Assembly (NCBI GenBank): GCA_030867685.1
Contig: JAQOWU010000007.1
Coordinates: 1,860,001-1,924,000 of the forward strand
DNA: 64,000 bases
Source of the DNA: Wickerhamiella versatilis
Taxonomy: Eukaryota
Direction of reading: 5' to 3'
Part shown: one piece after another, positions 2,198 through 55,615 of the stretch
Layout of the letters: each line of letters starts with the position of its first letter
How positions within the stretch are numbered: the first letter of the stretch is position 1
The notes under the pieces: model-generated
What the model was told of the DNA's origin: nothing
Databases searched by the model: none
What the model saw: only the letters and a program-made list of their open reading frames with translations
Made by a program: the position numbers and the translations under genes

Positions 2198-5134
2198 ATG
2201 TCCGATGCCGGCGTGGTGAGTGTGCGAGTAAAAACACCAGAGGGTGTTAGCCATAAGGTGGACGTTTCGAAGGAAGAGCCTTTGATTGCCGTTAAGCAAC
2301 AGCTTTTAAGCTTGCCTGTTGCAAAACAGCCGTATAGTTGTTTTAGCTTTGCTCTTGACGGTAAGCCGCTGGATGTCTTGTCAACCCTTTCAGAGTATGG
2401 TATAACTAGTGATGTTGATCTGGACCTCTCATTGAAACCATATACTTTGGCTGAAGTCAAAATTCACCTTGAAAGAGCCCAGGAAGCTCTCGGTTTTGTA
2501 ACTCCTGATGTGGAGTGGTCCGTGAACCTCGGTGCATCTGTTATAACATCTCTAGGGACTACCATGTTGAATGATGGTGAAATCCCCGAATCTTCTACTA
2601 CAGCAGTAGCACATCAAAATCTGTTGGGACCTCGTCCCCAAGCCCGATTTCTCGGATTCAGCAAATACCATCCGCCTGCTGCCGCTGAGAAATTTGCAGG
2701 TATTCTAGCGTATTTGAGATTCGAATCTAGCAACAAAAAAGTCAGTCATATTGTCGCTACCCCCAGTGGATTTAAATTCACTAGGACGACAGATGAAACT
2801 TATGATCCACGCCCTCAGGGAGATCACACTGAAGTATCTCTGCTGAAACTGCTCGGTCTGGTAAAAGTAACAGAACGTCTAGCTGCACGTGTCTCCAAAA
2901 ATCCAGTATTGTCGTGGGCACCTCTAGGTCAAGCTGCTGTATCTGCTCGTGCTAACTTCAGAGTTGAGGTCCCCACACCTTGCCCTAAACGCGGACCTAA
3001 CCCATTGGTCGGTGAACGGAGGGACTGGAACGAGGATTTCCAGAGCGCTCTTGAGCTGCCGCATGAAGAAATAAGGGATAGAGTTACCAGGGAGAAGCTT
3101 TCTGTTGGTATAGCTGCTGAATTTGCCCGTGCTGCAACTGAGGGAGCTGTAAACGCAATTGAAGGAAACATGCCTCCTCTAAACCCTGGTGAGTCTCGGG
3201 ACGCCTGGATATGGCTCAAAGACAACATCTTCTACACGATGGGTACGGACTTTGCTGGTGCTTTCGTTCATCTTGGGGGTGATGAGGCTGCACATCTGGC
3301 AGCGGCAAAGGATCTCCAGGGAGCTCAAAGTATCATGCAGCTGGGTGTTGATGGAGTTTCACCCGTTCTGACAACAATAGTAGACTATTGCGGACGTCGT
3401 GTTGTTGCCCAAGGGCCTGTTCCTGGTGTTTTTAGAGACAGTCCAGAACAACAAATCAAGTATGGATCCACAGAAGGTCGCGATCAAATTTTGAACGATT
3501 CAATTTTTCAACCGCCATTTGAAGAAATTAGAAAGGCTCTCCACCTCGAAAAGCACACGTTTGCTGGTGTAGAACTAGAGACAAGTGTTGACGTTAAGGG
3601 AATGCTTGGCCTCGACGGTCGTAAATACATTCTTGACACCTACCGTTTGGCTCCCCCTGACCTATCATTCGAGGTGCCTCGCGATTATCCGCACCGACTC
3701 TTCCTGCTACGTCCAGAGGCAGTTGTCTTATATGCCGCCGAGCATGAGGGCTTGGAACTAAATCCTGATGGTTGGCTGCCCGAGGCCTCAGAAGCTGACA
3801 CAAGAAAGTTGGTGGAAGTGAGTAAATTTGTTCAGAATGACCTCGTTCAGCGTTTGCTGAATGAAATAAAAGATTCTTTGTCCACGAATCCCTTGGATGG
3901 CACGCAACTCACACAAGCAATGCATAGAAAGGGTATTAATATGCGATACCTTGGAAAAGTGCAACAATATGCGAAGCAATTTAAGTTCCTTGAGACTTTA
4001 GTTCATCTATGCGCTGTTGAAGCCGCGGCTAGAGCGTTTAAACATATTGCTGCGCGCAACGTGAAAGTTTACTCCGATTTAGGTGATATTCGGACAAAGC
4101 TGGAGCATATGGTTCTTAATCCACCTCGCGAGGTAATTGAGGAAGCTGGTACACGATTCCCTGGAATTGATGTTGATGAGAACATCCTGAAAAGCTCGCG
4201 ATTTGTCAAAGAAGTGTCTCGCTTATTGGGGCTTCAATGGAATGCTAACGGCAACCTAGTTGCTGTAGTTCCCTTAGTTTCATATGCCTCTCCGCGTGCG
4301 CTGGTTGCAGAGGAGGCATTGACAGCATCTCGTATGACAGAAGACCCGCAGGTGAGCATTGAATTGGCGGCAGAAGGTGTAGCACTTATGGGTCAGGTCC
4401 ATGGACCAATCCACCCCGATACTGCGAGAGCTCATAATTCGACTGCTTTGGTCTACCATAAGCATGGCAAGAACAAAGAAGCTGCTGAAGCCTCAACACG
4501 TGCTGTAACAATCTCTGAACGTACGCAAGGACTCGATTCTGGTGAGACAATCGTCATGTACACTAACCTTGCATACTTCGAGCGGGCTGCTGGACGACCT
4601 GAAGTCGGATTGCGTCTGTCACAGTACCTGCTCAGTTTATGGCAAGGTGATCATCCTGACAAGGCAACAGCTTATAATCATGGTGGGTTGATGTTGGCCC
4701 AACTTAAAAAGTATGAAGAGTCGATTCCATGGTTTGAAGAATCGATAAGAATGTTGGATTATGCGGGTCAGTCTAAGAGTCTATCTGCTGCCGCTGTCAG
4801 CGTTGAACTTGCTCAGTCCCAGCTCCTGCTGAAAGACTATGGCCGTGCATCACGGACAATGGAGAAAGCTTGGTCGATCTACAAGGAGCTGAAAGGTGCT
4901 GACGATGAGCAGACTAAAGAATGCAAGGGGTGGCTTGATCAGTTGCTGGCAGCCACTGTGCAAGGGGCAAAGTACAATTTTGCTAAATTGGAAAAGCGTA
5001 AGCCTCGAGCAAAGGCACCGGAACCAGCTGCGCGTAAGAGCGATCCCAGCGCTCCCAAAGTTGGATCTGCGTCCATAAATGATGTAGTGGCATATATCAC
5101 CGGCGGAACCCAATCTAAAAAGAAGCGCTCTTAA
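2198..5134 (+). CDS. CLU1: Clustered-mitochondria protein Clu1/Tif31 (CLU domain + TPR repeats)
   Basis: RDWNEDFQSALELP, TIVDYCGRRVVAQ, KGMLGLDGRKYILD, MHRKGINMRYLGKV and C-terminal TPRs. First ATG at 2198. Confidence 0.93.
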   Translation: MSDAGVVSVRVKTPEGVSHKVDVSKEEPLIAVKQQLLSLPVAKQPYSCFSFALDGKPLDVLSTLSEYGITSDVDLDLSLKPYTLAEVKIHLERAQEALGFVTPDVEWSVNLGASVITSLGTTMLNDGEIPESSTTAVAHQNLLGPRPQARFLGFSKYHPPAAAEKFAGILAYLRFESSNKKVSHIVATPSGFKFTRTTDETYDPRPQGDHTEVSLLKLLGLVKVTERLAARVSKNPVLSWAPLGQAAVSARANFRVEVPTPCPKRGPNPLVGERRDWNEDFQSALELPHEEIRDRVTREKLSVGIAAEFARAATEGAVNAIEGNMPPLNPGESRDAWIWLKDNIFYTMGTDFAGAFVHLGGDEAAHLAAAKDLQGAQSIMQLGVDGVSPVLTTIVDYCGRRVVAQGPVPGVFRDSPEQQIKYGSTEGRDQILNDSIFQPPFEEIRKALHLEKHTFAGVELETSVDVKGMLGLDGRKYILDTYRLAPPDLSFEVPRDYPHRLFLLRPEAVVLYAAEHEGLELNPDGWLPEASEADTRKLVEVSKFVQNDLVQRLLNEIKDSLSTNPLDGTQLTQAMHRKGINMRYLGKVQQYAKQFKFLETLVHLCAVEAAARAFKHIAARNVKVYSDLGDIRTKLEHMVLNPPREVIEEAGTRFPGIDVDENILKSSRFVKEVSRLLGLQWNANGNLVAVVPLVSYASPRALVAEEALTASRMTEDPQVSIELAAEGVALMGQVHGPIHPDTARAHNSTALVYHKHGKNKEAAEASTRAVTISERTQGLDSGETIVMYTNLAYFERAAGRPEVGLRLSQYLLSLWQGDHPDKATAYNHGGLMLAQLKKYEESIPWFEESIRMLDYAGQSKSLSAAAVSVELAQSQLLLKDYGRASRTMEKAWSIYKELKGADDEQTKECKGWLDQLLAATVQGAKYNFAKLEKRKPRAKAPEPAARKSDPSAPKVGSASINDVVAYITGGTQSKKKRS

Positions 5135-5235
5135 GTGCTGTGTACATAGTATTATTAGCTCAATAATAAATATATGACGAAAACTATATGTGCAAATTCT
5201 TTGGGTATAAACCCTCTCCGGATTTCAGATATATA

Positions 5236-5898
5236 CTATCTTTCCGACCTAATCCAGCTATTGATATCATGGAATAAGGAGTCATAAACAACTTTTCCTG
5301 CAAGAAATTCATTTCTCGTCAACTGAGGCCGCACCACCGAACCTTTTGCTATCACACTGGCTCCTAAAAATGCATCAGCAGACGTAAACTCAGTAATGGG
5401 CTTTCTGTCTTGCAGCATCCCTCGCACATCCCTCCCGCAGCGGTCAAGAACTTTCTTGTCCGCTTCTCCAACAGACTGTTCTTCAGTGGACTCAATCAGC
5501 GTTGTCATCTCACGATAATCATAAACTGGAACTATCATTGTCTCACCACGGCTTGAAGTGTAATGGACGAGCCCCGAGGCAAGACCACTACCCACGACAA
5601 TACAAACGCTTAATTGAAGAAATGCAAGGCTGCGGACACGAAAGCCACCGAGAAGAATTCTGGACAGAGTCTTCTTCAATGGAAAAGGGAAGAGCGGAGG
5701 CTCCACAATCACGATATCCAAAGATGTTGGTGAAATAAGAAGCGACTTTATTGCTTTGGCAAGAGGTTTGTACATGTGATGTTCTTCAAAAGATTCATTC
5801 TCCCATGATTCACAATCAATCGCGCATTTTAGCCTACAGCTTCCTGCTAGGCCTGCCTCAATCGATTCAGAGGATATGCATATAATGCCCGTAGGCAT
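5236..5898 (-). CDS. Divergent actin-related protein, Arp10/Actr10 (dynactin)-like
   Basis: IEAGLAG, IVIVEPPLFPFPLKKTLSRIL..FRVRS, VVGSGLASGLV, IVPVYD and AFLGAS are remnants of the actin fold. Confidence 0.65.
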   Translation of the reverse strand: MPTGIICISSESIEAGLAGSCRLKCAIDCESWENESFEEHHMYKPLAKAIKSLLISPTSLDIVIVEPPLFPFPLKKTLSRILLGGFRVRSLAFLQLSVCIVVGSGLASGLVHYTSSRGETMIVPVYDYREMTTLIESTEEQSVGEADKKVLDRCGRDVRGMLQDRKPITEFTSADAFLGASVIAKGSVVRPQLTRNEFLAGKVVYDSLFHDINSWIRSER

Positions 5899-5928
5899 TA
5901 GTCATAGTGATATTTTGGAAAACCGGGA

Positions 5929-6381
5929 ATGTTACGGCTATTTAAACCTATTGTCCCGGCAGCAAGGTCCCTTTTACGGCCAAAAATTATTCCAGCAGTC
6001 CCTAAGCTTGTTAGAGGAAAGCGTACCCAAAGACTAGCGCCAGGAGCATCCCGTGTTATAACGATGTTGAGCGTCCTGAGTGCAAGAAAAAAGCAACCAC
6101 GGCGTCTTAAGCTTTGTCGTGAGGATCTAATTCGCCATCAGACGGTACAAGCTGCTTATAGACTATTTATGCGTGATGCAAAGTCCGAGCGCATGGAAAA
6201 ACTTCGTTCTCAGCATGCACAAATGGTGGAGGCTTGTTCGGAACTGGAAAAACTCGATAATGACCTCTTTAAGCTTGCTACTGAACGCCAGAAAGGTAAA
6301 AGGTTCCCTCTAGAACTTCGTGTCCCCACAGATACACCACCAAGGAAGAAGTGGCATGATGATTGGTCACCTCGAGACTAG
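5929..6381 (+). CDS. MRPL28: Mitochondrial ribosomal protein mL40
   Basis: LSVLSARKKQPRRLKLCREDLIRHQT..KGKRFPLELRVPTDTPP matches yeast Mrpl28. Confidence 0.9.
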   Translation: MLRLFKPIVPAARSLLRPKIIPAVPKLVRGKRTQRLAPGASRVITMLSVLSARKKQPRRLKLCREDLIRHQTVQAAYRLFMRDAKSERMEKLRSQHAQMVEACSELEKLDNDLFKLATERQKGKRFPLELRVPTDTPPRKKWHDDWSPRD

Positions 6382-6441
6382 GTAGAAAATTATGACCCAC
6401 AATGTATCCATGTATATATACTACTCTAAATAGTCGCTTTT

Positions 6442-7203
6442 TTAGCCATATTTTGCAACCATCATAGACATTGATCCTAAGGTTATACCACGAATGGGGA
6501 TAGTAACCTCTTCGCTTACATTAGTTGTACCAGCGACATAAAGTAAAGGAAGAAAATGATCTGGGGTGGGATTTGCCCGTATTCCTAGACTGGACTGGCG
6601 GAAGTTGATCAAAGCCTCTGGATTTTTGAGATTGTCAATTATATATTGTTCATATTCCTCTGCCCACCGTGAACTAACATCACCCATAGACATCTCTGCG
6701 AAGCTATGCACGATATTTCCTGAGCCCAATATAAGAACTCCTTGTTCCCGCAAGGAGGAAAGCTTCTGTCCAATGTCGTAATGATACTGTGGTGGCTTTC
6801 TTCTGTCAATACTGAGTTGGACAACCGGAATATCTGCTTCTGGATAAATGTGTTTTAGAATTGACCAGGCCCCATGATCAAATCCCCACTTATAGTCTAA
6901 TTCGCAATCTGGTGCCAAGAGACTAACTACCTGGCTGGCAAGGTCGAATGAGCCAGGTGCGGGATATTGCTGAGCATAAAGTTCGTCAGGGAATCCATAG
7001 AAGTCATGAATCGTATCAGGATGCATCGACGCAGTAACCCTTGTAGCTGCTATAAACCAATGTGCACTTATCACTAGTATAGCCTTGGGTCGAGGAAGCA
7101 TTTCACCTATTTTTTTCCAAGCTTCAGAGAATCTCGATACATCAATAGCATGCATTGGTGATCCATGACCAAAGAATAGAGCTGGCAGCCTCTCGAAGTT
7201 CAT
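6442..7203 (-). CDS. Extradiol ring-cleavage dioxygenase, LigB/4,5-DOPA dioxygenase (YgiD-like), 253 aa
   Basis: PALFFGHGSPM, PRPKAILVISAHW, TIHDFYGFP, YPAPGS, WGFDHGAW, YPEADIPVVQLSID, GSGNIVH, NPTPDHFLPLLY, GSMSM. ATG at 7203. Confidence 0.93.
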   Translation of the reverse strand: MNFERLPALFFGHGSPMHAIDVSRFSEAWKKIGEMLPRPKAILVISAHWFIAATRVTASMHPDTIHDFYGFPDELYAQQYPAPGSFDLASQVVSLLAPDCELDYKWGFDHGAWSILKHIYPEADIPVVQLSIDRRKPPQYHYDIGQKLSSLREQGVLILGSGNIVHSFAEMSMGDVSSRWAEEYEQYIIDNLKNPEALINFRQSSLGIRANPTPDHFLPLLYVAGTTNVSEEVTIPIRGITLGSMSMMVAKYG

Positions 7204-7529
7204 ACTACTTCTACGTTGAAAAGATAAATCTCGTTTGGTCACACAAATGTCTGTGGTTAGGGGAACACATGTAACATTAAAAGCTACATCTAGGTGTAAA
7301 TTTTCCAGGAAATATTCAGAGAGAGAGCAAATTAATTTCAATTTATGGAAATTCACATATAGCGATAGTAGCTGTGTCCCACCCTACAAGTATTAAATGC
7401 GGCTAAAATATCTCACCCTGTGTTATATATAACATGTTTGTCACTGACCGGAACTCCGAGAGTCGTCAAGTAATTCAGGTCACGTTGATTAATGTTTGTA
7501 TTTCTTCATTAGAATAATTGTAATGCAGT

Positions 7530-8171
7530 TTAAGGATTTGTGACCACACACCACCAGTTGTCTCTCTCATAACCTGAATCCGTGACCATGCCTCCGGCCT
7601 TTACAACATCCTCTTCGAGCTCACCTTTAGCATATAAATGGTAAAAGCGTTGGAATACCCTAGGAGGAACACTGTTGTCTTGCCATGGAACGAAAACATC
7701 TTGATCCATTCCCTCATTCCAACCTCTTCGTGAATTTTTCTGTTCCAATGCCCAGACGTAGAGAAGAGCGCTTCCCCCTCGGCGCAAATGGCCCAGTATT
7801 TCTATAATTGATTGGATCCTTCTTTCTCGAGTTGCAAAGTGATGTATAACAGCAATGCATATGGCAAAGTCAAGGCATCGCCCAGTAAATGGTAAAGCTA
7901 ACCCATCACAGCAAAACACATCGTCAGTTGATGTTTTCGCACGTTCAGCAGAAATATTGCATAGTTCTTTAGAACGTTCACCATTCATAATGTACACATT
8001 TGGATACATGAAATATTTCCCATTTCCTCCACCAACGTCGCCACCAATGGAACCGTAAGGTAATTCTCGTAAATATTGGTCGACCCGGGGCCAAGGTTTA
8101 TACCGTGTTAAGGAAAAATGGGATGCTATCTGCTCGTAAACATCATGAACGTGGGTCTGTTCAAGATCCAT
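7530..8171 (-). CDS. TRM9: tRNA wobble-uridine (mcm5U) methyltransferase
   Basis: EQTHVHDVYEQIASHFSLTRYKPWP, DVGGGNGKY, IAVIHH, VWALEQ, RFYHLY, YERDNW. Confidence 0.92.
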   Translation of the reverse strand: MDLEQTHVHDVYEQIASHFSLTRYKPWPRVDQYLRELPYGSIGGDVGGGNGKYFMYPNVYIMNGERSKELCNISAERAKTSTDDVFCCDGLALPFTGRCLDFAICIAVIHHFATRERRIQSIIEILGHLRRGGSALLYVWALEQKNSRRGWNEGMDQDVFVPWQDNSVPPRVFQRFYHLYAKGELEEDVVKAGGMVTDSGYERDNWWCVVTNP

Positions 8172-8363
8172 GGTTGATCTGCTTGATTACTTACCTAGAT
8201 CGGATAAAAAATTACTGCGAAATTTGATAGCCTTCAAGTCACATTCAAATGGACTTATTCCGTCATTTACTATTTAGCGTAGATTATTTTACAGGTGTGG
8301 TTAGATGAATTAAGTACATCAAGATACAAATTAAAATTATGGAATCTAATCTAATCACACAAA

Positions 8364-9104
8364 TTATTCTTTTTCAATTACCGCATTTTTTACGGTTGCA
8401 CATCTGTGGAAATGTCTCCGGAAAGAGTCTTGCCTAGAAAATTTCTGGCCACAGAAGCAGCATTGATATGGCTGTCCTATATGCGTGGTGAGATGGCGTA
8501 GTACCCCACGGGAATTTTTCACAATGCTCTCACACTTAGGACAGGTGAGCGAACCGTCTTCATTCTGGTTCATTTCATACTCATTGAGCTTGGCATCCAA
8601 AGCTATGGTCTGTTCAGTCATAGTATCCATGAACTTCGATCGCATGGAATCTGGCCCTTCCACACTTTTGAACCCTCGCAATCTACTACGCTTCAGAGCA
8701 GCAGGTCCCTGCTTGTCCAACAGTTCTGGTGAGTTATTAGCTGGCTTCAATTTATTCGGGGATGGGTTAGGCTTGTCAGTCGCTGTATTCTTCTCCTTAT
8801 CCACCTCATTTCTCTTATCTGCTTCTGGCTCTTTGCGTCTTCTCTTCCGCACCTGAGATACTGGAGGCAGCCAATTGGCAGGGAGAGATTGTGGTGCTAA
8901 TTGAATTTGAGAGGGTTGGAGAGAAAATACTGGAGCAATGGGACCCATATGAGGTGGAAGAGGTGACGGAATGGGTCCTATCATGCACGGAGACTGTGCG
9001 TCGTTTCTACGGGGAGGTCTCATGATAACTGGTGAGGGAATACAAAAGACAGGAATGCTATCAAGTGGCGTGATGGGACTCAAAATCCAGTTATGGCTCT
9101 CCAT
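8364..9104 (-). CDS. Putative zinc-finger transcription factor (C2H2 + C2HC fingers), Pro-rich N-terminus
   Basis: CPKC..RHLTTH-IGQPY-QCCFCGQKFSRQDSFRRHFHRC; basic NLS-like RKRRRK. Confidence 0.8.
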   Translation of the reverse strand: MESHNWILSPITPLDSIPVFCIPSPVIMRPPRRNDAQSPCMIGPIPSPLPPHMGPIAPVFSLQPSQIQLAPQSLPANWLPPVSQVRKRRRKEPEADKRNEVDKEKNTATDKPNPSPNKLKPANNSPELLDKQGPAALKRSRLRGFKSVEGPDSMRSKFMDTMTEQTIALDAKLNEYEMNQNEDGSLTCPKCESIVKNSRGVLRHLTTHIGQPYQCCFCGQKFSRQDSFRRHFHRCATVKNAVIEKE

Positions 9105-9336
9105 CGTCTCAAAGAGTGAATTGGCTTACTATGAACATGTAATTATCGCGTATTTAGGCCGGTTCCACCAGATGTTAGGGTCCATCTGACCGCTGACGCG
9201 TGACAATTAAACCCACCAGCTGACCAAACAGAGGAAGTAGCCGAAATAGAATACTAAGGAATATATCCCCTCAACGAAGAGCAGTCTAAATGCGTAAAAA
9301 AGATGTAAATGCTATCCAACTGGACTTACTCTGAAT

Positions 9337-22076: not shown

Positions 22077-22150
22077 GGTTCGATGGTCTAGTTGGTTATG
22101 ACGGGTGCCTAACACGCACCAGGTCCCCAGTTCGATCCTGGGTCGAATCA
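22077..22150 (+). tRNA. tRNA-Val(AAC)
   Basis: Acceptor stem GGTTCGA/TCGAATC, anticodon arm GGTGC-CTAACAC-GCACC, T arm CCCAG-TTCGATC-CTGGG, followed by a T7 Pol III terminator. Confidence 0.96.
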
Positions 22151-22269
22151 CTTTTTTTGCTTGAATCCTTATTTTTTTTTAGCAATAAGCTCAATATGAT
22201 ACCGTAGTCCACCAACATTATAAATTTCTACATGCACAGGTTTTTGTTTACCACTATATTATATATTAA

Positions 22270-23311: not shown

Positions 23312-26300
23312 CTAATTTACTACCGATTCAAAAAATGGAGTCTTCTGCTCTTGTCTTGCTCGGAAAGGGGATACAATATTGAAGGCGCCAGTGCCAACAT
23401 GCATGCTTTGCCCAAGAATAATGCATTCCGAGACACCCTCAATCTTATCTGTCTTCATGTAAAATGCAGCATCAAACAGATGGTCGGTAGTCTTTTCAAA
23501 TGAGGCGAGTTGTAGTACTGAGTCGCGCATTTTCGCCAGACCGAATCGAGTGATACCCAAAACTTCACCTTTAAACGTCATGACATCACCAAGTAGTTGA
23601 ACATGTCTAGGATCAACAGACATGCCATGGTTTGCCATTGTGTAATTAATCTCATTGATAATCGATGCACGAGCAGCTTCAATGCCAAGAACATCTCTCA
23701 TTTCAAGAACGTGATTGGTAGACGTCTTGTGTCCTAACACACCATCTGTGATCATAATATTTTGTAGACCATATCCCTCCACAAGAAGTTCCTTCCTATC
23801 ATCAGACGTGATATTGATTACAGCACGGTTGATCTCTGGAAAGCCCTCCACTACAACAGAAGGAAGCATACGGAGCAGTTGCTGCCCTCTGAAGTATATG
23901 TGTGCCGGCGAGCTCATCTTTTCGTCCGCTACAGTAGACTTCAGATCACTCCCTTTGATTGCGACGTGGATTTCCTGTTTCTTTGGCAAAACTCTGATGT
24001 CAGCGTCGCTCAGTTTTAGTTTGGGGTGGGCCTGGATTGCATTGGCAATACTGTTCAAAGATACATCTAGCTGTAGTCGCTCGATAGTTCTCTGATCCAC
24101 TTTAATGCCAATATATGCATGGTCATTGCAATAAACATCCTCTAGGTACTCAGCGATATCACTTAGCAGGGTCTTCTCCACACGGCCCTTAACAATTCGA
24201 GCGGTTCGTTCGTCACGGTCGTTTGCTAGGCACGCATTAATGATAGGAGTCGAAATTGTCTTAGAAGCATTGATAATTTCCTTAATGCGAGGAACACCCA
24301 ATGTTACGTTCATACTTGCTACACCCGCAAAATGGAACGTCTTGAGTGTCATTTGAGTTCCAGGCTCACCGATACTCTGAGCACCAACAGCACCAACAGC
24401 AGTTCCTGGTTCGACTTTTGCACGCTCATATTTAAGCATACATATGCGCAAGAACTCATCAATAAGTTGCGGGGTGATCTTTGACACCTTTGCTACAACC
24501 TCATCATTACCAAGGTTTTTACGGAGTTTCTCCAACTCAGTACATTTCCCACGAACAAATTCGCGAATAGAGGCGTAAAATTCTCGCTGAGGATCCAGTT
24601 CATCAACACATCTATCATCAGACGACTGAACCGCACGTGTGATACTCTTCTCCTTGGATTTGATAAGGTTATCAGAACGAGAATATGCCTCTTCCGGCAA
24701 GAGAGGCTTCGAACTTAGAGAGAATTGCTCATACGCACAGTGTGCCCAGGTACGGCCGAAGTCCACTGGCTGCGCATCTCCTTCCATATCAAATGGATCC
24801 AGCCCATCACCACCATAATTAAATTGAACCACCAGATTCGAGGATGTTCTTACGGTTTTATCGTAAAGGATACTCAGATCTTCCAGAGACTTCATGAGAC
24901 GACGTGACATATAACCTGTCTCTGCTGTCTTGACCGCAGTATCTACCAAGCCTTCACGACCAGAAATGGCGTGAAACATAAATTCAGCAGGATCAAGTCC
25001 GGTGAAAAAGCTGTTGCGTACAAACCCCTTCGATGGGGGTGTTTTTGAGAACTTAGGGAAATGTGGCAGAGTACGGTCTTGGAACCCATCAGCAACACGA
25101 CTTCCACTGATAATTTGCTGACCGACACAAGCCACCATTTGACTCACATTCAGAGTAGAGCCCTTTGAACCGCATGTGGCCATGATTAATGGGGCATTAT
25201 GAGGGTCGAGTTCACGAATACACACATCACCAACCGTACCCCGTACATTAGAAAGTATGCCGGAGATTTTCGCTTCTAAAGTTTGTTCTTCATCACATCC
25301 TGGTTGGGTTTCTAATTTTCCTGCAGCATAAATAGCGATAAGCTCATCACACTGTTGGTATGCATCCTCAACTAATCTATCCTTGAGGTTCGTAAGCTCA
25401 GCGTCTGGAGTGACATCAGATATACCAATAGAAAACCCACGGTTTCCTAACCAGCGAGCACTCATCTTAGCCATTCGATTCATAGCAGTAGCAGCCGCAT
25501 CCGGGCCATAATCTCGCAGAATAGCATAGAACACTGAGTTCTTGTTGTCATCTCCTAGCAGAGCTTTGTCCATTGTGCCTGAGAGGATCTGTGATCCACG
25601 AATCAGTACCCAGCCATCATTCGTCGAATATTGAGGATCCATACCGCTAGGAGGCTTGTGGAAAGCCTTATTACGGGTCTCAAGGTTGATGGATACCTGG
25701 CTTTGATCATTCGGTTTGATGAGCAGCGAAAAAACCTGTTTTCCGCTCCATAAACGCTTAGGTTTGAGAATCGCTGGTATGGGAATATCAAAGTGAGTCA
25801 TTGCATCTGACATGCTTGCCAGAATTTGTAGCAGCTCGGCGTGCGTGAAAAATTGATCCTTCTTCGTGACTAGATAACTTGCAGAAATGAAATCCTGGGT
25901 TGCCGCAATGATTGGTGCGCCCGACCTTGGGGTTACAATATTGTGCTTGACACCCATCAGGTTCATAGCTTCTGCACGCGCCTCCTCTGTTTGAGGAACA
26001 TGGAGATTCATTTCATCACCATCGAAGTCGGCATTGTAAGGGGTACACACACATTCATTGAGTCGTAATGTTCGCCACGGGCGTACTTTGACGAAATGGC
26101 TCAGAATTGACAACCTATGCAAGGACGGCTGGCGGTTGAAGAGCACAATATCACCATCTTCAAGATGTCGTTCCACAATGTCACCGATCCCCAGGCCCTT
26201 TGCAAGCTTATCTCTTTGACCAAATCGCAGGTTACGCCGGACTTCTTCACCCCGCTTAAGCACATAGTTTGCTCCGGGATATACAAAAGGCCCATTGGTT

Positions 26301-27505
26301 ACAAGAACCTTCAACTTCTCTCTATTATGTGTGGTCACGCGCTCAGGATAGGTCAAAATCTTTGCAATACGATCAGGTACGGCTACTTCATCGATCTTCA
26401 GATTGGGATCCGGTGAAATTACAGTACGGCCACTGAAATCTACACGTTTTCCGCTAAGGTTTCCTCTGAAACGTCCTTGCTTTCCCTTTAATCGCTGGCA
26501 CAACGCTCTGATCGGAGAAGAACTACCTGATCCTGTGGGAGTGTCACTGTTTATGTATAATGCCAAACTCAATTGCATGAATTCCCACTGGTTCATGAGC
26601 TCATGCAAGGCCATACCGTTTTCAAACCCCGACAATATCTGCGCATTTGCTTTAACTATTTCAGTCAGTTTTACGGTAAGATCATCCTCATTCGAGGCGT
26701 TGTCTTGCATGATCGACGGACGAATGCAAACTGGAGGTGCCGGAACTTCTTGCCAGAGGTAGAGTTCAGGGCGGCCACCGATATCTGGATCGATTCCTAA
26801 GAACTCACAATCCTCCATGCTAACCTGCTTAAATAGGTTGAATACCCTAAGTGGGTTGAGCTCCTCAGCACTCCGTTTCACCGTCTTCTCCATCTCAGGG
26901 TTTGCCTCGACGGCAGCCTCGAGCGAGGAGTCGTAGGCAATTTTCTCATCGGGAACCTTTTTGCCAACCCACCTAAACTTGTCGTGAACTACCCGCAGTG
27001 CTCCAGATTTTTTCACCACACCGTTAATCGCATTACAGTGAGGGCACCTACGGGACTTCTTGCATTGGTCATTTAGTTTTTTCAACACCGTCATACGGCG
27101 TAGATTATCGATATCGGGAACCCGAAGCTCTCGTAAAAATTGTTTTTTCTGGGAGGTGTCAAGCAAAATTGCACTACACTCTTTGCATATATTTTGCAGT
27201 ACCGTGATCACGTGGCGAAAATATCCCACGTGAAATACAGGAAGAGCCAGTTTAATACGTCCAAAGTGGCCCTGACATGTGGCAAGTCTTCCATGGCAAG
27301 TGTCGCACTCTGTAAAGTTGTCACTAACACCCATCTTCCGATCCAGCGGGCCGTGAGCCTGTGGTTGTCTCCCGTTCTCCAGATTATAGAGGTCTACACG
27401 ATTAACATCCACCACACTCAGTTTGTTAATCTCTTCTGGGCTCAAAGAGCTAAAAGAAAGACCCGAAATCCGTCGTGGTGGATTGTCGTCGACATAGTCT
27501 TTCAT
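23312..27505 (-). CDS. RPO31: RNA polymerase III largest subunit (C160)
   Basis: [46 protein letters not shown]; no CTD heptads. Confidence 0.97.
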
Positions 27506-51926: not shown

Positions 51927-51998
51927 TCCGTTATAGTCTAGTGGCTAGGACGTCACGCTCTCACCGTGAAGGCCTGGGTTCAATTCCCAGTAACGGAG
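51927..51998 (+). tRNA. tRNA-Glu(CTC), copy 1
   Basis: Acceptor stem TCCGTTA/TAACGGA, anticodon arm TCACG-CTCTCAC-CGTGA, T arm CTGGG-TTCAATT-CCCAG, downstream T-run. Confidence 0.96.
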
Positions 51999-52076: not shown

Positions 52077-52148
52077 TCCGTTATAGTCTAGTGGCTAGGA
52101 CGTCACGCTCTCACCGTGAAGGCCTGGGTTCAATTCCCAGTAACGGAG
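52077..52148 (+). tRNA. tRNA-Glu(CTC), copy 2 (identical)
   Basis: Identical 72-nt sequence 150 bp downstream with its own T-run. Confidence 0.96.
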
Positions 52149-55544: not shown

Positions 55545-55615
55545 GCATTGGTGGTTTAGTGGTAAAATTGGTCGTTGCCATCGACTAGCCCCCGGTTCGA
55601 TTCCGGGTCAATGCA
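55545..55615 (+). tRNA. tRNA-Gly(GCC)
   Basis: Acceptor stem GCATTGG/TCAATGC, anticodon arm GGTCG-TTGCCAT-CGACT, T arm CCCGG-TTCGATT-CCGGG, T-run terminator. Confidence 0.96.

Follow-up and report, generated by a model that had tools for sequence, protein, structure and literature searches.

How does a gene for a bacterial-type ring-opening dioxygenase come to stand among the housekeeping genes of a yeast, and does its product still work there? The locus lies in 64,000 nucleotides of Wickerhamiella versatilis DNA (contig JAQOWU010000007.1, positions 1,860,001–1,924,000, forward strand; hereafter the window, whose own coordinates are used throughout), where an open reading frame (ORF) at 6442–7203 on the minus strand encodes a relative of Escherichia coli YgiD, a 4,5-DOPA extradiol dioxygenase of the LigB family (DOPA, 3,4-dihydroxyphenylalanine). 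A sequence-only reading of this stretch had proposed horizontal transfer from bacteria. Our analysis makes it probable that a ygiD-type gene passed long ago from a bacterium to a yeast of the clade Wickerhamiella/Starmerella (W/S), and that its product is still a working Fe(II) extradiol dioxygenase. The proposed transfer finds support in protein searches, trees, the RPC1 gene of the host, contigs spanning the gene junctions and RNA reads.

A YgiD-type gene flanked by yeast genes

The locus comprises three genes and one transcript leader.

5929–6381, plus strand: MRPL28, mitochondrial ribosomal protein L28 (Pfam MRP-L28, E 4e-28; GC content at third codon positions, GC3, 0.364)
6442–7203, minus strand: coding sequence of a class III extradiol dioxygenase of YgiD type (LigB family), 253 amino acids (aa), stop codon within the coordinates, intronless, ATG at 7203
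7204–7233, minus strand: approximate 5′ untranslated leader, from the collapse of RNA coverage upstream of about 7233
7530–8171, minus strand: TRM9-type tRNA methyltransferase (PDB 5cm2_Z, E 1e-56; Pfam Methyltransf_11; GC3 0.364)

The 253-aa frame is uninterrupted from its ATG, and the assignment of its product to the family is far beyond chance. With the NCBIfam equivalog model for YgiD (NF007914, 4,5-DOPA-extradiol-dioxygenase), whose cutoff is 233 bits, it scores 324.9 (E 3.3e-97), residues 1–251 of 253 matching profile positions 1–260 of 262; Pfam LigB (PF02900) gives 81.3 bits against 26.3 (E 8.1e-23). The E. coli YgiD entry in the PDB (2pw6) aligns to residues 2–251 (E 9.6e-79), and in tblastn the query aligns along its entire length (100%) with E. 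coli ygiD at 47.7–48.1% identity. The protein begins and ends with LPALFFGHGSPM and TIPIRGITLGSMSM, and the YgiD termini with which the sequence-only reading had compared them agree with the printed 2pw6 alignment. A 304-aa call of the same gene (P0121) is begun at an upstream GTG; because RNA coverage drops off upstream of about 7233, the 253-aa form is taken as the real one. No second copy was found within the window by tblastn.

The reported position between native MRPL28 and TRM9 is borne out by the MRP-L28 and 5cm2_Z matches (we take 5cm2 to be Trm9–Trm112). MRPL28 converges on the dioxygenase gene across a 60-bp gap, and the TRM9-type gene stands in tandem on its upstream side, 326 bp away. 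Other genes in the window are also eukaryotic: CLU1, eIF2D, PIG-S, RPC1, a GET3-type ArsA, UGGT, NOP9, thymidylate kinase and SUR7. RPC1 (RNA polymerase III largest subunit, 23312–27505) has its best named relatives in Wickerhamiella domercqiae (73%) and Starmerella magnoliae (70%), then Trichomonascus (66%); the host is therefore a W/S-clade yeast distinct from W. domercqiae and St. magnoliae. Direct or inverted repeats flanking the dioxygenase gene, which could mark an insertion footprint, amounted only to short matches of chance size.

Chromosomal linkage and transcription

Nothing beyond the bacterial affinity of the protein favours bacterial contamination or a chimeric assembly, and the data on linkage rule both out for practical purposes, leaving them a negligible probability. 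Yeast genes stand within 60 and 326 bp on the two sides, and the gene uses codons as the host does. A 2.8-kb stretch running from MRPL28 through the dioxygenase gene to TRM9 is represented, by at least half of the words sampled from it, in 20 public sequencing runs from 12 studies; these are runs of isolates and of metagenomes from food fermentation, sediment and elsewhere, and 7 of them carry a flag as potential sources of the window DNA. A 30,344-nt isolate contig, which may itself be that source, shows 0 differences across 4800–9300. A 1,531-nt contig from a 2018 food-fermentation metagenome, from a different study, covers 6246–7776 and thus bridges both gene junctions. RNA raw reads carrying the same species label and coming from another strain fall on the gene and its flanks alike, mostly at 95–99% identity to the window, that is, from a strain diverging by 1–5%. 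Contigs across both junctions and RNA reads therefore tie the gene to its yeast neighbours, the point on which the sequence-only reading had made contamination turn.

The same reads show a separate, unspliced mRNA for the dioxygenase gene, about as abundant as those of its housekeeping neighbours. They come from two raw-read runs (X23 and X24), of which about a quarter each was read, over 4800–9300; the index of sequencing runs lists no run with the 2.8-kb stretch recorded as RNA. Depth summed over both directions in the five bins of the ORF is 40–116 (mean about 78) in X23 and 39–87 (mean about 65) in X24, compared with about 49 for TRM9, about 240 for MRPL28 and 2–8 for the spacer upstream of the ORF. 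The drop at the 5′ side is sharp, from 53–58 in bin 7065–7215 to 2–8 in bins 7216–7366 and 7367–7517 (both directions summed), and in X24 five read ends lie at 7233. No splice joints were seen in the RNA reads over 4800–9300, making the gene intronless, as the sequence-only reading had claimed for a 253-aa LigB-family gene. The library behaves as unstranded, and the strand of the transcript is taken from the ORF.

The spacer between TRM9 and the dioxygenase gene holds a perfect palindrome, TGTTATATATAACA, at 7421–7434, about 190–220 nt upstream of the dioxygenase start; judged by its sequence, it may be a TATA-type promoter element.

The closest named relatives are bacterial

A word-indexed search of 5.8 billion proteins listed the best 120 matches, many of them without an organism name. 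One cluster at 99% is of the same species, a 237-aa protein (P0002) follows at 80%, and the remainder form a plateau at 48–55%; two yeast-type clusters thus stand above the bacterial plateau among these 120. Every named match among them is bacterial, mostly Erwinia and Pantoea, with Rouxiella, Providencia, Xenorhabdus, Paramixta and Zophobihabitans also present, and no named fungal protein was found. Among the named matches of these 120 there is no sign of the vertically inherited fungal clade against which the transfer was to be checked. An exhaustive search of cluster representatives returned 7,105 relatives at up to 53% identity (among the 10 leading representatives looked at, the one with a name is a Bacteroidia metagenome-assembled genome), and the three nearest ESM Atlas clusters among those listed are 96–100% Bacteria. 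With each prokaryotic species represented by one genome, a pattern scan turned up 590 relatives, of which 80 loci (L001–L080) were kept. A single-protein pattern scan of metagenome contigs matched 32 stretches, none of them a relative. In tblastn against plasmids, 168 records carry ygiD-type genes, all below 60% identity and several of the top rows chromosome-sized; no specific transfer vector is indicated by this search.

A search for longer proteins gave 18 matches, namely bacterial fusions and a single eukaryotic protein, the tandem LigB protein P0416 from the plant Prosopis cineraria (38% identity); neither a fungal protein nor a fused yeast form was found among them.

The bacterial and metagenomic fusions (P0417–P0428) join YgiD-type LigB domains to an ABC ATPase, short-chain dehydrogenase, MarR, GGDEF or amino-acid permease. 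Such natural fusions might hint at physiological partners of the YgiD family.

Placement within the YgiD family

Trees were built from the window protein, P0002 (together, the yeast pair), translations of the 80 kept loci, 11 named proteins and selected unnamed ones. For careful IQ-TREE analysis a subset of 65 rows was hand-picked with each clade represented. Its first tree drew the yeast pair to P0222, a relationship that we treat as long-branch attraction and reject: P0222 is N-terminally short, has lost the equivalent of His166 (a catalytic residue, see below) and is closest to a Sodalis row. It was removed, along with another long row (P0144), before the two further trees, of which the second includes a plant outgroup consisting of the two domains of P0416.

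65 rows: yeast pair with P0222 (52/28), adjoining Enterobacterales (56/85)
63 rows: yeast pair sister to 17 Enterobacterales rows (90/88 for the two together, 86/80 for Enterobacterales by themselves)
65 rows including the plant outgroup: yeast pair with Enterobacterales (75/88), under nodes of 88/84, 94/82 and 93/87

In the last tree the plant is set apart from all other rows by a branch of length 2.41 (100/100). A maximum-likelihood analysis of the kind that the sequence-only reading had called for, here with bacterial and plant rows, places the yeast pair among bacteria in the careful trees, also with the plant root. We read the gene as nested in the bacterial YgiD radiation. A sister position to the Enterobacterales YgiD clade is moderately supported (ultrafast bootstrap, UFBoot, 75–90), and the donor would best be a gammaproteobacterium allied to Enterobacterales but lying beyond those sampled. 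A donor inside Erwinia/Pantoea, the genera of the top similarity matches, was rejected: in the approximately unbiased (AU) test, forcing the yeast pair with six Erwiniaceae-type rows costs 13.0 log-likelihood (lnL) units (p 0.027), although this group, like the second one tested (below), was defined after a first tree was seen.

As called, P0222 (a Logan record) lacks the N-terminal metal loop, and besides the catalytic histidine it has lost the DHG glycine; it has the look of a YgiD copy in decay, possibly from a symbiont, with Sodalis its closest row among the Enterobacterales.

Composition and age of the proposed transfer

At GC3 0.362, the dioxygenase gene matches its two neighbours (0.364 each). 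The likelihood of its synonymous codons under the rest of the window gives z = +0.69, rank 29 of 37 ORFs, and no compositional anomaly that could mark a transfer was found relative to the rest of the window; homologues from Erwinia and Pantoea have a GC3 of 0.64–0.68. Comparison of GC3 and codon usage with the neighbours, a check suggested together with the transfer, therefore returns no foreign signature, which we read as amelioration and not as evidence against transfer. The host-like composition, the identity of about 50–55% to the closest bacterial protein and the 80% yeast copy indicate an old transfer, before the split of the two yeast lineages.

Composition varies along the window on a larger scale. 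ORF GC3 is about 0.35–0.44 in the first 27.5 kb or so and again beyond about 53 kb, and about 0.47–0.62 between 28 and 53 kb; bulk GC rises from 0.42–0.47 to 0.48–0.50 in 28000–52000. The shift looks like a compositional domain boundary, with the dioxygenase gene in the lower-GC part.

Active site and predicted structure

The motifs quoted in the sequence-only reading as putatively metal-binding or catalytic are all present in the translation: GHGSPM (12–17), SAHW (46–49), DHG (109–111), GNIVH (162–166) and PTPDH (212–216). Their five histidines align with those of YgiD and of the Beta vulgaris enzyme BvDOD (PDB 8in2). Roles follow from residue alignments to 2pw6 and 8in2 combined with published numbering (PMC13263728, PMC11926856); the columns refer to a 20-sequence alignment, A1.

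7165–7167, minus strand: His13 codon, metal ligand 1 (YgiD His22, BvDOD His15; alignments to 2pw6 and 8in2)
7060–7062, minus strand: His48 codon, metal ligand 2 (YgiD His57, BvDOD His53; column invariant in A1)
6874–6876, minus strand: His110 codon, catalytic (BvDOD His119, LigB His127; column invariant in A1)
6700–6708, minus strand: His166-Ser167-Phe168 codons, His166 catalytic (BvDOD His175, LigB His195; column invariant in A1)
6556–6558, minus strand: His216 codon, metal ligand 3 (YgiD His234, BvDOD His229; column invariant in A1)

His13, the remaining position, is at least 90% conserved in A1. Alanine mutants of the two catalytic histidines are described as losing activity in BvDOD (PMC11926856).

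More broadly, 70 columns show conservation of at least 90% across 91 bacterial sequences, and the protein agrees with 66 of them. The other four carry N18H, N23S, N167S and L168F, identical in both yeast proteins, at positions 99–100% conserved in that bacterial set. N18H and N23S come shortly after the metal loop, N167S and L168F directly after His166. These shared substitutions could reflect a change of the substrate pocket after transfer, or merely drift fixed on a long stem.

An AlphaFold2 model built on the 20-sequence alignment is confident (predicted local distance difference test score, pLDDT, 94.6; predicted template-modelling score, pTM, 0.93). Its best PDB matches in Foldseek are 2pw6 (template-modelling score, TM, 0.88), 8in2 (0.91) and the Mirabilis jalapa enzyme 9j2l (0.89–0.91); as the model's alignment includes YgiD relatives, this evidence on the fold is not independent of the sequence evidence. 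The protein begins directly at the conserved core with no extension, and is therefore expected to be cytosolic.

Weighing the explanations

Several results weigh against an old bacterial transfer that left a working enzyme. The yeast stem branch is long (0.83–1.12 changes per site) and its placement unstable. In a quick IQ-TREE analysis of 113 rows (posterior mean site frequency model, PMSF) the yeast pair (100; stem 0.94) falls outside a 32-row Enterobacterales clade (99) and groups weakly (82) with Steroidobacteraceae and Armatimonadota rows; a quick tree of the 65-row subset puts it, again weakly (84), with a Steroidobacteraceae row, a three-row Armatimonadota-led group and P0144. FastTree, run on 235 rows (122 of 150 representatives added, those omitted being already present or outside the range 235–320 aa), returns the sister position to Enterobacterales with a support of 5. 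The Steroidobacteraceae/Armatimonadota alternative is 10.2 lnL units worse in the AU test, at p 0.051 not clearly rejected. Identity across the 80 kept loci, from many phyla, is nearly flat at 44–51%. The trees contain no fungal LigB/DODA rows, so that absence from other fungi is a result of the protein search alone, and a closer eukaryotic relative could rank below the best 120 matches. As to the enzyme, Asn-Leu follows the catalytic histidine in 91 of 91 bacterial sequences and is Ser-Phe in both yeasts, a change next to His166 that could mean altered or reduced activity, and P0002 as called starts at the equivalent of M17, without the first metal histidine.

Might the gene have come from another eukaryote, for example a Pezizomycotina fungus with a bacterial-like YgiD gene, and not directly from a bacterium? 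W/S yeasts do have Pezizomycotina genes (133, 47 and 27 in three species, as described in PMC13376923), and both the missing fungal rows and a stem long enough for unsampled intermediates leave room for such a route. It is nonetheless quite unlikely, since the named matches among the best 120 include 0 fungal proteins, the sole eukaryote in the longer-protein search is a plant protein at 38%, and a native ascomycete DODA is given as 25.2% identical to YgiD (PMC13263728), as against about 48% for the window protein. Still less probable is an ancient, vertically inherited fungal gene lost from nearly all other yeasts. LigB-family proteins are described from Ascomycota (PMC13263728), the composition is that of the host and two yeast lineages have the gene in common, all of which vertical descent would explain; the plant-rooted tree, however, puts the yeast pair several supported nodes deep within bacteria, only two yeast-type clusters appear among the best 120 matches from 5.8 billion proteins, and the protein passes the bacterial equivalog model.

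A gene that was transferred and is now decaying, transcribed but no longer encoding a working dioxygenase, would account for replacements at bacterially invariant columns beside His166 and past the metal loop, for a P0002 without its first 16 residues as called, and for the long stem. Against such decay stand the intact frame, the five catalytic-site histidines and 66 of 70 strongly conserved columns, expression near the level of the neighbours and a confident structure model; that both yeasts, at 80% identity, have the four changes in common fits fixation followed by constraint. We consider loss of function improbable, to about the same degree as a eukaryotic donor. A somewhat better but still doubtful prospect is that the enzyme was re-tuned after transfer (Ser-Phe, N18H, N23S), giving a substrate range that bacterial YgiD proteins lack or a chemistry of the betalamic-acid or muscaflavin type that is not known from Saccharomycotina; candidate substrates would be catechols that plant or soybean phenolics release in nectar or during food fermentation.

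An old bacterial transfer with a working product is the explanation that we prefer. An ancestor of this W/S-clade yeast would have gained a bacterial ygiD-type gene as a single insertion between MRPL28 and TRM9, before the lineage diverged from that of the second yeast with the 80%-identical copy, and long enough ago for base composition and codon usage to become fully host-like. The product, by homology, would be a cytosolic non-haem Fe(II) enzyme with its metal held by His13, His48 and His216; His110 would deprotonate and position a catechol hydroxyl and His166 serve as acid, O2 being inserted beside the diol to open the ring. L-DOPA would thus give seco-DOPA, whose cyclization would yield betalamic acid or muscaflavin. 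In the yeast, a plant phenolic of catechol or quinol type would be a likelier physiological substrate than L-DOPA, and pigment synthesis a less likely role. E. coli ygiD is described as hydroquinone-induced through YhaJ, with a proposed role in quinol or aromatic breakdown (PMC5031710).

Comparison with known systems

E. coli YgiD (2PW6) is the nearest known counterpart: the two proteins, about 48% identical over their full length, share a single-domain LigB fold, a metal site of three histidines and a pair of catalytic histidines. The yeast gene differs in its setting: it lies in a yeast chromosome, uses codons as a yeast gene does and gives rise to a eukaryotic mRNA. Membership of the hydroquinone-induced YhaJ regulon (PMC5031710) is known from E. 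coli. Its 253 aa fall short of most bacterial relatives (about 255–262 aa) because of short loop deletions after residues 174 and 190.

Plant DODAs (BvDOD, 8IN2; Mirabilis jalapa, 9J2L) share the fold (TM 0.89–0.91) and five equivalent histidines but are more distant, at 34–37% identity and E values of 1e-42 to 1e-39 as against 1e-78 for YgiD. In BvDOD, L-DOPA is positioned by Thr17, Asp254 and Tyr260; position 15 of the window protein is Ser, as in YgiD. Plant DODA is an enzyme of the betalain pathway, a pathway context known for plants and not for this yeast. Neolecta irregularis NiDODA, compared here by its description only, belongs to the LigB superfamily, has the three metal histidines and cleaves L-DOPA; it is reported to be 25.2% identical to YgiD and to cluster with Ascomycota (PMC13263728), where the window protein (about 48%) clusters with bacteria.

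W/S yeasts are described as carrying bacterial xenologs in the hundreds, whose identity to the putative donor in no case exceeds 70% and many of which are common to several species (PMC13376923). The dioxygenase gene resembles those known from the clade (alcohol dehydrogenases, SUC2, the enterobactin operon) in being old, below 70% identity to a donor, present in more than one species and metabolic (PMC13376923); for the enterobactin operon an Enterobacteriaceae donor has been reported (bioRxiv 10.1101/399394). It differs from a published description of W/S xenologs as accumulating in AT-rich, low-expression domains at chromosome ends: it is single, stands amid housekeeping genes and is expressed near their level.

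In the main texts of three W/S papers (PMC13376923, PMC5897096, PMC12461148) no mention of a DOPA, extradiol or LigB dioxygenase was found; the gene-level xenolog lists in their supplements lay outside this search, and the gene may already be catalogued there. In the literature collection searched, no paper links Wickerhamiella with extradiol dioxygenase, and papers on horizontal transfer of DOPA dioxygenase in yeast, or on Starmerella and DOPA, gave nothing on this gene. Transfer from bacteria to W/S yeasts is itself already well documented, and the dioxygenase adds one more case.

Other features of the window

Two further ORFs lie near the locus, and four tRNA genes were noted elsewhere in the window.

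5236–5898, minus strand: 220-aa ORF between CLU1 and MRPL28, with no Pfam match; RNA depth about 55–105 per bin (both directions summed), about 8–10 in its 3′ part at 5253–5403
8364–9104, minus strand: 246-aa ORF with weak C2H2 zinc-finger matches; RNA depth about 1–12, unlike its neighbours
22077–22151: tRNA-Val(AAC)
51927–51998 and 52077–52148, plus strand: tandem tRNA-Glu(CTC) genes, starts 150 bp apart
55545–55615: tRNA-Gly(GCC)

Implications

The W/S clade is the best-documented case of large-scale bacterial gene gain in a eukaryote, and attention there has gone mostly to the metabolism of sugars, alcohols, vitamins and iron. A ring-opening dioxygenase would add aromatic or phenolic chemistry to this list, in a host yeast that occurs in food fermentations, where phenolic turnover influences flavour. 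We know of no settled physiological role for YgiD in bacteria; a eukaryote that has long retained and expressed a copy offers an independent system for asking what the enzyme is for. YgiD-type enzymes are used for betalain pigment production in microbes, where one that is already yeast-adapted could have practical value.

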